From: Clostridia bacterium
GTDB lineage: Bacteria > Bacillota > Clostridia > Lachnospirales > Anaerotignaceae
DNA: 64,000 nt
Assembly (NCBI GenBank): GCA_022786605.1
Contig: JALFWW010000018.1
Span: 7,558 to 71,557, forward strand
Direction: 5' to 3'
Within the stretch, counting starts at the first letter, position 1. Each line of letters opens with the position of its first letter. Shown one piece after another: positions 13,617-15,789 of the stretch. The position numbers and the translations under genes were made by a program. Below the pieces are notes generated by a model. It saw only the letters and a list, made by a program, of their open reading frames with translations. It searched no databases and was not told the DNA's origin.

Positions 13617-13846
13617 TTCTCTCCTCCTCTCTTCGAAAACAAGCGCCCCTTTCATGTATACAGAAAACAAAAACATGCCTCCCGTCATATTCTTTCTAGA
13701 GTCGCTTCCTGCTTCTTCTTGCCGATTGTCATCTTTGGTATGGGCTTCCTTTTCTGTCAGGAAAACCATGTATCAAGACAGGATTTCGTTAACAGAAAAC
13801 ATGCGCTGTATCTGTCAACAGTTCCTGATCTTATCGCTTGTTTGCC

Positions 13847-14656: not shown

Positions 14657-14756
14657 TCGTTATAACGAAATTCCCCTTCTGTCATACTTTTTTACGAAGA
14701 ATCGAAAAAAATCTAGGGATCGGTTCTCCGCGTCTTCTTTTTTCCACGTAAAAATT

Positions 14757-14828
14757 AAAAAAACATCAAAATAAAGCCGAAAATATATTTTTTTTGCAAA
14801 AATTATCGTTTCGGTTTTATTTTGATGT
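14757..14828 (-). terminator. hairpin plus U-tract inside the inverton
   Basis: ACATCAAAATAAAGCCGAAA (14763-14782) pairs with TTTCGGTTTTATTTTGATGT (14809-14828), 19/20; followed by a T-run on the minus strand; loop is long (26 nt). Confidence 0.55.
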
Positions 14829-14834
14829 CATCAC

Positions 14835-14863
14835 TTGCTATCGTATGTAAAAAGTGTTATATT
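14835..14863 (+). promoter_or_regulatory. sigma70 promoter inside the inverton, currently facing away from the adhesin
   Basis: TTGCTA (14835-14840), 17 bp, TATATT (14858-14863) with extended -10 TG at 14855-14856. Confidence 0.7.
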
Positions 14864-14940
14864 TGAAATGTAATACTTTCGTATTTTATATGATTATATA
14901 TGTGATACAATCTGATTTTTATGACAGAAGGGGAATTCTG

Positions 14941-15789
14941 TTATAGAACGAGGCCCATGCGTTCCAGTTTCTGACGATGGACGCGCCCGCTTTCCATAAT
15001 ATAGATTCTTGTGGTTTCAATATTGCTGTGTCCCAGCATATCCGCCAGTTTTGCAATATCTTTATCCAGACTGTAAAAAATCCGCGCAAACAGATGGCGC
15101 AGGTTGTGTGGGAATACTTTCTTGGGATTCACCTCTGCATCTTTGCAGAGTTTTTTCATTTCTGCCCAAATATTCCCCCGATGCAGGGGGCGTCCGCTTC
15201 TTGTAACAAATAAAATGCCTTTGGAAATACCGTTCTTTGCCGCATAGGCCTTCAGTTTTTTCTGCAGACGGACCGGCAGAAAAATCACCCGTCGTTTTCC
15301 CTTGCAATTGACTTCCGCTCTGCCCCGTTTGACTGCCTCCAATGTGATGAACTGCAGTTCAGAAACACGTATGCCTGTGGCACAGATGGTCTGTATCAGC
15401 AGGGAAAGACGTTCTTTGCCCTTTCTTTCCGCTGTACGCACCAGTCTGCTGTATTCTGCCCGTGTCAGTTCTTTTTCTTCACTGATAAATATTTCTTTTT
15501 GAATTTTCAATAACTTCATACGCAGATCATGTCTGCCCAAAAACGCAAACAGTCCATTGGCTGCCACCAATTTTCCATTGACCCCTGCGGGGCTGTATGT
15601 TTTTTCCAAATTTTCTTTCCATAACAGCAGGTCTTCTTTTCTGACTTCTTTTCCTGCCAGAAATTGTTCCAGCTCCCGCAGTTCTCTTGCGTATTTCTCT
15701 AAAGTTCCTTTGCTTTTCTCCTGTATTCTCAAAAACTGTAAATAAGATACTACGATATTTTTCGTCACAACGATCTGTTCCATCGTCAA
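14941..15789 (-). CDS. tyrosine recombinase (probable invertase)
   Basis: Complete catalytic set: TGIRVSEL (R), CKGKRR (K), PHNLRH (HxxR), LGH, TTRIY (Y); stop codon lies in the outer arm of the right site. Confidence 0.92.
   Translation of the reverse strand: MTMEQIVVTKNIVVSYLQFLRIQEKSKGTLEKYARELRELEQFLAGKEVRKEDLLLWKENLEKTYSPAGVNGKLVAANGLFAFLGRHDLRMKLLKIQKEIFISEEKELTRAEYSRLVRTAERKGKERLSLLIQTICATGIRVSELQFITLEAVKRGRAEVNCKGKRRVIFLPVRLQKKLKAYAAKNGISKGILFVTRSGRPLHRGNIWAEMKKLCKDAEVNPKKVFPHNLRHLFARIFYSLDKDIAKLADMLGHSNIETTRIYIMESGRVHRQKLERMGLVL

Follow-up and report, generated by a model that had tools for sequence, protein, structure and literature searches.

Two copies of a 26-nt sequence lie in opposite orientation beside a tyrosine recombinase gene in the DNA analysed here, a 64-kb stretch (the window) that comes from an Anaerotignum of the pig gut. 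The locus raises the question of whether these repeats are the sites at which the recombinase inverts the segment between them and, if so, where within the sites the strands would be exchanged and which genes the inversion would control. The repeats occupy positions 14661-14686 on the plus strand and 14920-14945 on the minus strand; they are complementary at 24 of 26 bases, and 233 nt separate them. Genes and sites follow one another on the minus strand in the order recombinase, proximal site, interior, distal site, a 266-aa paralogue of the recombinase and a 1463-aa protein (Table 1). We consider it likely, with good though not complete confidence, that the two repeats serve as recombination sites in a phase-variation switch, flipped by the adjacent Xer-like recombinase, in which a promoter carried on the cassette controls the operon beyond the distal site.

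Repeat geometry and inversion in public contigs

Each of the two repeats is itself an imperfect palindrome. The left, operon-proximal (distal) site reads TATAACGAAA-TTCCCC-TTCTGTCATA, and the right, recombinase-proximal site, when reverse-complemented, reads TATAACAGAA-TTCCCC-TTCTGTCATA. The TTCCCC spacers of the two sites are identical and point in opposite ways. With arms of 10 nt, 7 of 10 positions are symmetric in the left site and 9 of 10 in the right; with arms of 11 nt, a script count gives 7/11 and 9/11, the eleventh position being mismatched. The 26-bp repeat as a whole is unique, in that no other match with three or fewer mismatches is found in the window and none arose in 100 shuffles. 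Palindromes of the 10-6-10 form with at least 9 of 10 matches, by comparison, number 4 in the window against a shuffle mean of 1.8, and those with 7 of 10 matches are common (326 in the window). That is, a lone palindrome is not rare, and the significance of the pattern derives from its coincidence with the unique 26-bp repeat and from the recurrence of the same site grammar in 31 loci, described below. The sites are also tightly packed against the adjoining genes: the stop codon of the recombinase, TAA (14941-14943, minus strand), lies inside the outer arm of the proximal site (14936-14945), and 13 nt separate the distal site from the downstream start codon of the paralogue.

The orientation of the interior was surveyed in public contigs, from pig-gut assemblies, that encode either the exact recombinase or the exact downstream paralogue. 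The interior is inverted in four distinct contigs (L062=L086, L064, L066 and L089), and it has the window orientation in six (L063=L087, L065, L067, L068, L085 and L088). The interior of L063 is the exact reverse complement of that of L062 (234/234), and the flanks of the two are identical. The same segment thus occurs in both orientations between fixed flanks, in four inverted contigs versus six in the reference orientation, as is the case for an inverton. The junction in the inverted contigs agrees base for base with the sequence that had been predicted in advance for an exchange within the repeats. The two repeats differ from each other solely at two positions of the outer arm, with AG in the proximal site and GA in the distal site, and these bases stay in place in both forms. 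The exchange must therefore take place inward of these differences, i.e., within the 18 bp made up of AA, TTCCCC and the inner arm. Thus, we conclude that the switch is real, and that it is active in natural populations.

The places at which assemblies break are also of interest. Contigs of 20-33 kb (L066 and L067-L069) stop at the proximal repeat or a few bases past it, and in the assembly of an independent run, X16, the breaks between pieces fall at both repeats. Runs X4, X5 and X9, which are possibly the source runs of the window DNA, gave one contig each, in the reference orientation. Two isolate assemblies, L007 (3846-3880) and L041 (near 3930), carry runs of N inside the proximal repeat or right after it. 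Contig ends and scaffold gaps at the repeats hint at mixed populations, since a culture that holds both orientations is expected to give such gaps.

These results bear on a preliminary description of the locus, which had been made from the sequence. It had described the 10-6-10 imperfect palindromes, with the better symmetry on the right, and the identical, asymmetric and opposed spacers, and all of these features are confirmed in the sequence. From the opposed spacers it had predicted inversion, which is now directly seen, as both orientations exist in public contigs; it had further anticipated that the recombinase stop codon would survive inversion, and the outer arms and the stop codon are indeed unchanged in both forms. 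Its placement of the crossover within TTCCCC stands in part: the natural junctions confine the crossover to a stretch of 18 bp in which the spacer lies, and they do not pinpoint TTCCCC itself.

Table 1. Coordinates of the switch, its genes and the two related modules of the same genome. Plain numbers are window positions; the modules are given by contig record.
Feature	Position	Strand	Remarks
Recombinase-proximal site	14920-14945	-	outer arm 14936-14945; spacer 14930-14935 (TTCCCC on minus); inner arm 14920-14929
Operon-proximal (distal) site	14661-14686	+	outer arm 14661-14670 (TATAACGAAA, weaker); spacer 14671-14676 (TTCCCC); inner arm 14677-14686
Invertible interior	14687-14919	.	233 bp in the window, 234 bp in other samples
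Promoter motif TTGCTA-17-TATATT	14835-14863	+	TG upstream of -10; conserved in paralogous module as TTGCCA-17-TG-TATATT
Hairpin (~14762-14829), then U-run (14749-14761)	14749-14829	-	predicted intrinsic terminator toward transcription from the recombinase gene
Tyrosine recombinase, 280 aa	14941-15783	-	from ATG; open reading frame (ORF) open from TTG at 15789
Dead recombinase paralogue, 266 aa	13847-14647	-	first operon gene; 28% identity to the recombinase, BLASTP 5e-34
Cargo surface protein, 1463 aa	9095-13486	-	Pfam: two VWA, GBS104-like Ig domain, C-terminal SLH repeats
Contig 21 module	L005:7010-13099		recombinase 75% identity, dead paralogue, 1382-aa SLH cargo; same gene order as window
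Contig 5 module	L070:2-4926		recombinase 48% identity, ACAAAAT arms, centre CAGC, similar hairpin and T-run

Recombinase, predicted cassette promoter and the operon beyond the distal site

The product of the gene that abuts the proximal site matches Phage_integrase (4e-25) and a SAM-like N-domain in Pfam, and the motifs GIRVSE, KGK, HNLRH, LGHS and TRIY are all present. Residues R139, K163, H226, R229, H252 and Y261 show little or no variation among 21 homologues; that is, the protein has the catalytic domain with the R-K-H-R-H/W-Y residues of the tyrosine recombinase superfamily. Its best NCBIfam matches are XerA, XerD and XerC, all under their cut-offs, and the equivalog models for XerC, XerD, XerS and XerA give 103-127 bits against cut-offs of 220-335. 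The FimB- and FimE-type models give 23 and 19 bits, respectively, against cut-offs of ~221. The best relative of solved structure is an XerC-like recombinase (PDB 4a8e, 8e-16). This evidence supports an assignment of the adjacent gene to an intact, Xer-like tyrosine recombinase, which we infer to be the catalyst of the inversion. In place of the single unlinked dif site per replicon that serves Xer dimer resolution, three inverted site pairs are found in this genome, each abutting its own recombinase gene.

The interior carries a promoter motif that is directed, in the window orientation, at the 3' end of the recombinase gene, with the operon behind it; after inversion, the motif faces the operon. 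The neighbouring hairpin, folded as the minus strand, has a predicted energy of -24.6 kcal/mol (z -4.8) and is followed by seven U, AA and five U; on the other strand its z score is -6.9, and the stem is followed by no U-run. The hairpin is conserved in a second module of the same genome, on contig 21, with changes on both arms, and the promoter followed by the long hairpin makes up the best-conserved block between these two Anaerotignum-type modules. Homologous loci in distant genomes have a near-consensus TTGACA-17-TATAAT at the same position, mostly directed toward the recombinase in the assemblies; in a few loci (L035, L034, L050 and L058) a consensus promoter is directed toward the cargo. 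In the inverted cassette, transcription from the promoter would enter the operon after a predicted leader of ~90 nt, and no U-run follows the hairpin. We therefore read the window orientation as the putative OFF state and the inverted orientation as the putative ON state. A terminator-like hairpin with a T-run also lies antisense within the recombinase gene (window 15133-15150, plus strand), ~270 nt downstream of the outward promoter; a counterpart of this hairpin was not found in the contig 21 module.

The paralogue encoded directly beyond the distal site is the most unusual feature of the switch. It is devoid of the catalytic Arg-I, His-II, His-III and the Tyr nucleophile, and Pfam detects in it only the SAM-like N-domain. 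The catalytic columns are lost in all nine of its homologues, every one of which is an intact ORF; eight of the nine dead-paralogue loci are in Anaerotignum-like genomes and one is in Agathobaculum (L037). Literature searches returned nothing pertinent on a dead recombinase in a phase switch, nor on phase variation in Anaerotignum. In the 360-nt gap upstream of the cargo gene, neither a promoter-like nor a terminator-like site was found. This gap, which separates the gene of the dead paralogue from that of the adhesin, contains half-site-like strings (such as TTCTGTTAACGAAAT and GACAGAA, at about window 13745-13800 on the minus strand), which by our own estimate are no more frequent there than expected by chance.

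The mechanism that we propose is as follows. Each repeat would consist of two recombinase half-sites, with arms of 10-11 bp, inverted around a short asymmetric centre in which the strands are exchanged; cleavage, we infer, falls at the edges of the central 6 bp (4-8 bp). Synapsis of the sites by the adjacent recombinase would invert the 234-bp cassette and would not delete it, because the two centres are identical and opposed. In the OFF state, i.e., that of the window, transcripts from the promoter would run antisense to the 3' end of the recombinase gene, and read-through from that gene would be halted at the terminator. In the ON state, the inverted promoter would read across the distal site into the genes for the dead paralogue and the VWA/SLH adhesin.

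Site grammar across Clostridia and competing explanations

Homologues of the recombinase were found at 56 genome loci across Clostridia. At about 40 of these, an inverted-repeat pair starts 9-82 bp after the recombinase stop codon, with site centres 150-370 bp apart. The statistics of the sites were derived from 31 non-redundant pairs, whose consensus is TACnACATAAT-NNNN-ATTATGTnGTA; the Anaerotignum arms read ACAGAAT/TTCTGT. Conservation in the arms reaches up to 2 bits per position, and arm positions 2-7 are palindromic in a fraction of 0.97-1.00 of the recombinase-proximal sites and 0.81-1.00 of the distal ones. The central 4 nt carry 0-0.6 bit across loci and are identical within 30 of the 31 pairs; a palindromic centre was not found in any of them. 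In the clade of the window, the position immediately 3' of the centre (+1) also varies, being C, A or G, and matches within each pair. Inverted half-sites around a short matching centre, the arrangement of a tyrosine recombinase core site, are thus found both in the window, as 10-6-10, and in the pattern of the 31 loci. A centre that is variable across loci, identical within pairs and asymmetric is what is expected of a crossover region, and it provides the strongest argument available here that the exchange would take place in the middle of the site.

The clade of the recombinase tracks the arm variant, ACAGAAT versus ACATAAT. This clustering agrees with a cognate pairing of enzyme and site, and shared ancestry alone could yield it as well. 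Two paralogous modules of one genome, L035 and L040 of Bacterium D16-51, agree in their outer arms, but their inner arms are exchanged and their interiors lie in opposite orientations; they add an independent second example of inversion to the family. These two loci share the centre AAAA and could in principle recombine with each other. Loci whose arms differ near the centre were sought to bound the crossover more tightly, among them the contig 21 module and L048, in which the partner sites differ at positions -3 and +2. L048 returned its own record only and L049-type loci returned three contigs in one orientation, and none of the four possible junctions of that type of locus turned up when metagenomes were scanned for them. 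A family member with two identical sites (L038:3001-4150) is on a contig binned as Bacteroides thetaiotaomicron, which would be a cross-phylum transfer or a binning error.

The genome of the window contains three modules, whose centres are TCCC (window), TTCC (contig 21) and CAGC (contig 5). In the contig 21 module, the proximal site, TATAACAGAA-TTTCCC-TTCTGTTATA, is a perfect 10/10 palindrome, and the second site is TAAAACAAAA-TTTCCC-TTCTGTAATC; the stretch matches assembly GCA_034171105.1. The cargo of the contig 5 module is a BspA-type LRR/DUF285 protein of >1263 aa, whose ORF starts ~290 nt after the recombinase gene, and in this module no dead paralogue was seen. Homology of the spacers is needed between partner sites, and the differing centres would keep the three modules from recombining with each other. 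In two related genomes, modules of the contig 21 type have a recombinase gene that looks damaged, namely frameshifted into two reading frames in L054:3001-3815 and truncated to 192 aa in L023:3001-3783; the sites and the dead paralogue are kept in both, which may be locked switches or may be served in trans.

Several observations weigh against the switch as proposed, or against parts of it. The evidence for inversion comes entirely from assembled contigs, not from raw reads, and the natural junctions fit an overlap of 4, 6 or 8 bp alike, or an exchange within the inner arm. The contig 21 module was found in one orientation, the same as in the genome, in all ten public contigs examined. The two other family recombinases of the genome, with 75% and 48% identity, could act in trans. 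Finally, the assignment of ON and OFF is made wholly from the promoter and terminator motifs, and a weaker promoter-like site, ATGACA-18-GATAAT, faces the operon in the window orientation.

Among the alternative explanations, the one that survives best accepts the sites and divides them differently: the overlap would consist of the 4-5 variable bp, or of 8 bp reaching into the conserved AAT/ATT, with arms of 9-11 bp. In the family the symmetry of the arms extends over 11 nt, 77% of the sites are palindromic at the position that adjoins the centre, and only 4 nt are freely variable. Position +1, which varies yet is identical within each pair in the clade of the window, implies that the matching stretch is at least 5 bp long; this fits the 6-bp spacer, and it also fits an 8-bp overlap. 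Xer-type sites, however, which are the closest by sequence, typically have central regions of 6 bp, and in the window the symmetry ends exactly at 10-6-10. A different partition is a tenable possibility, to which we give a minority share of our confidence.

The arm-spacer-arm geometry of a crossover site, which the preliminary description had put forward, is supported by the palindromic arms and pair-matched centres of the 31-locus family. The same family does not support its additional suggestion that the weaker left outer arm may bias the directionality of the switch. In that explanation, the degenerate distal outer arm (7/10) would weaken binding at one half-site and so bias the direction or the rate of switching. 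The distal outer arm is the most deviant, or tied for it, in the dead-paralogue modules that were printed (window, contig 21, L006, L011, L012 and L037), and the distal site of contig 21, whose module is seen in one orientation only, is weaker still. Family-wide, however, the proximal and distal outer arms do not differ significantly (p = 0.11), and among samples the window's switch is commonly found in either state. Moreover, the outer arms are fixed, so that both states contain the same set of four half-sites, and a weak arm that stays put cannot on its own push the switch in one direction. We thus regard a bias set by the arm as unlikely.

The weak arm could nonetheless matter if the dead paralogue, which would be made only in the ON state, binds there. 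A more elaborate conjecture builds on this: the paralogue would still recognise half-sites, perhaps the deviant operon-proximal outer arm, and would lock or bias the state that produces it. The switch would thereby gain memory and directionality, and the three modules of the genome would be kept apart by their locus-specific centres of 4-6 bp. We offer this as speculation, and as a doubtful one.

It is also conceivable that the inversion is carried out in trans by another recombinase, be it that of contig 21, that of contig 5 or an unlinked one like RecV of C. difficile, in which case the adjacent gene would be incidental or redundant. The genome holds three family members with near-identical half-sites, and intact sites stand beside the frameshifted recombinase of L054 and the truncated one of L023. 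Set against this are the close and recurrent spacing between recombinase stop codon and site at the ~40 loci, the stop codon that in Anaerotignum falls within the arm, and the clustering of arm variants with recombinase clades. We consider it quite improbable that the adjacent recombinase, our preferred catalyst, is a bystander.

The cassette could, lastly, work through its terminator alone, as in cwpV, with transcription arriving from the recombinase gene or from further upstream and with the internal promoter motif irrelevant. The hairpin is strong, its U-run is on one strand, and it lies downstream of the co-oriented recombinase gene. Nevertheless, the -35/-10 motif with its TG falls in the best-conserved block between the paralogous modules, and the near-consensus promoter recurs at the same position in distant loci, so that a terminator-only switch seems very improbable, and the least probable of these alternatives. 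A reading of the repeats as the terminal repeats of a mobile element was rejected, given that the segment flips between identical flanks and that the sites have a fixed offset from the recombinase stop codon in ~40 genomes.

Relation to known switches and significance

A switch of this kind is already known from gut Clostridia. In the PhaseFinderDC survey of the hCom2 community, 32 of the 33 short invertons of group 139, from 17 strains, came from Clostridia; nearly all had an adjoining tyrosine recombinase of 'invertase group 35', shifts in orientation were measured in culture, and an example has 26-bp repeats ~205 bp apart (PMC11892184). Group 139 and the present switch agree in host class, repeat length, spacing and adjacency of the recombinase. 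The present switch probably belongs to this group, the published motif of which is given only in figures. The survey does not dissect the sites into arms and a locus-specific centre, and it describes neither a dead paralogue nor a stop codon within an arm (PMC11892184). What is added here is the site grammar with its locus-specific centre, together with the direct evidence of inversion.

In C. difficile cwpV, ~200 bp between imperfect 21-bp repeats are flipped by RecV, a recombinase of the XerC/D family (PMC2784873). The likeness is that a cell-wall protein of a Firmicute is phase-varied by a tyrosine recombinase, with an intrinsic terminator whose effect depends on orientation; the difference is that the cwpV promoter sits beyond the invertible segment and recV is encoded at an unlinked locus (PMC2784873), whereas the present cassette contains a promoter and has the recombinase gene abutting its site.

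By sequence, the closest systems are Xer/dif (XerC/D-dif, XerH-difH, XerS-difSL and the archaeal XerA-dif), which have the same geometry of ~11-bp inverted arms and a short centre. Xer/dif, however, is a single site that resolves chromosome dimers, whereas the present genome has three inverted pairs beside recombinase genes, which would invert a promoter. In layout, the switch resembles fimS of E. coli, an invertible promoter with the adjacent tyrosine recombinases FimB and FimE and with repeats flanked by half-sites. The fim repeats are 9 bp long, their inversion depends on IHF and Lrp, and the second recombinase of fim has kept its catalytic activity, unlike the dead second paralogue of the present switch. 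In Cre-loxP and Flp-FRT, the asymmetric spacer sets the polarity of the site, opposed sites give inversion, and a spacer mismatch blocks the exchange. These systems share the arm-spacer-arm plan, but with arms of 13 bp and spacers of 8 bp, and their proteins are not close relatives.

The general picture of phase variation by tyrosine recombinases is unchanged by the findings on the present switch. They do provide, for what began as a pattern in the sequence, direct evidence of an inverting switch, which would control a large VWA/SLH adhesin in Anaerotignum of the pig gut. For a recombinase-linked inverton family of Lachnospiraceae, Oscillospiraceae and relatives, they also supply a simple grammar, in which a locus-specific asymmetric centre is enclosed by conserved arms of 11 bp. 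With this grammar, such switches can be recognised in a single assembly; it would account for how several modules share one genome without scrambling it, and it offers sets of recombinase and site that are compact and would be mutually orthogonal.

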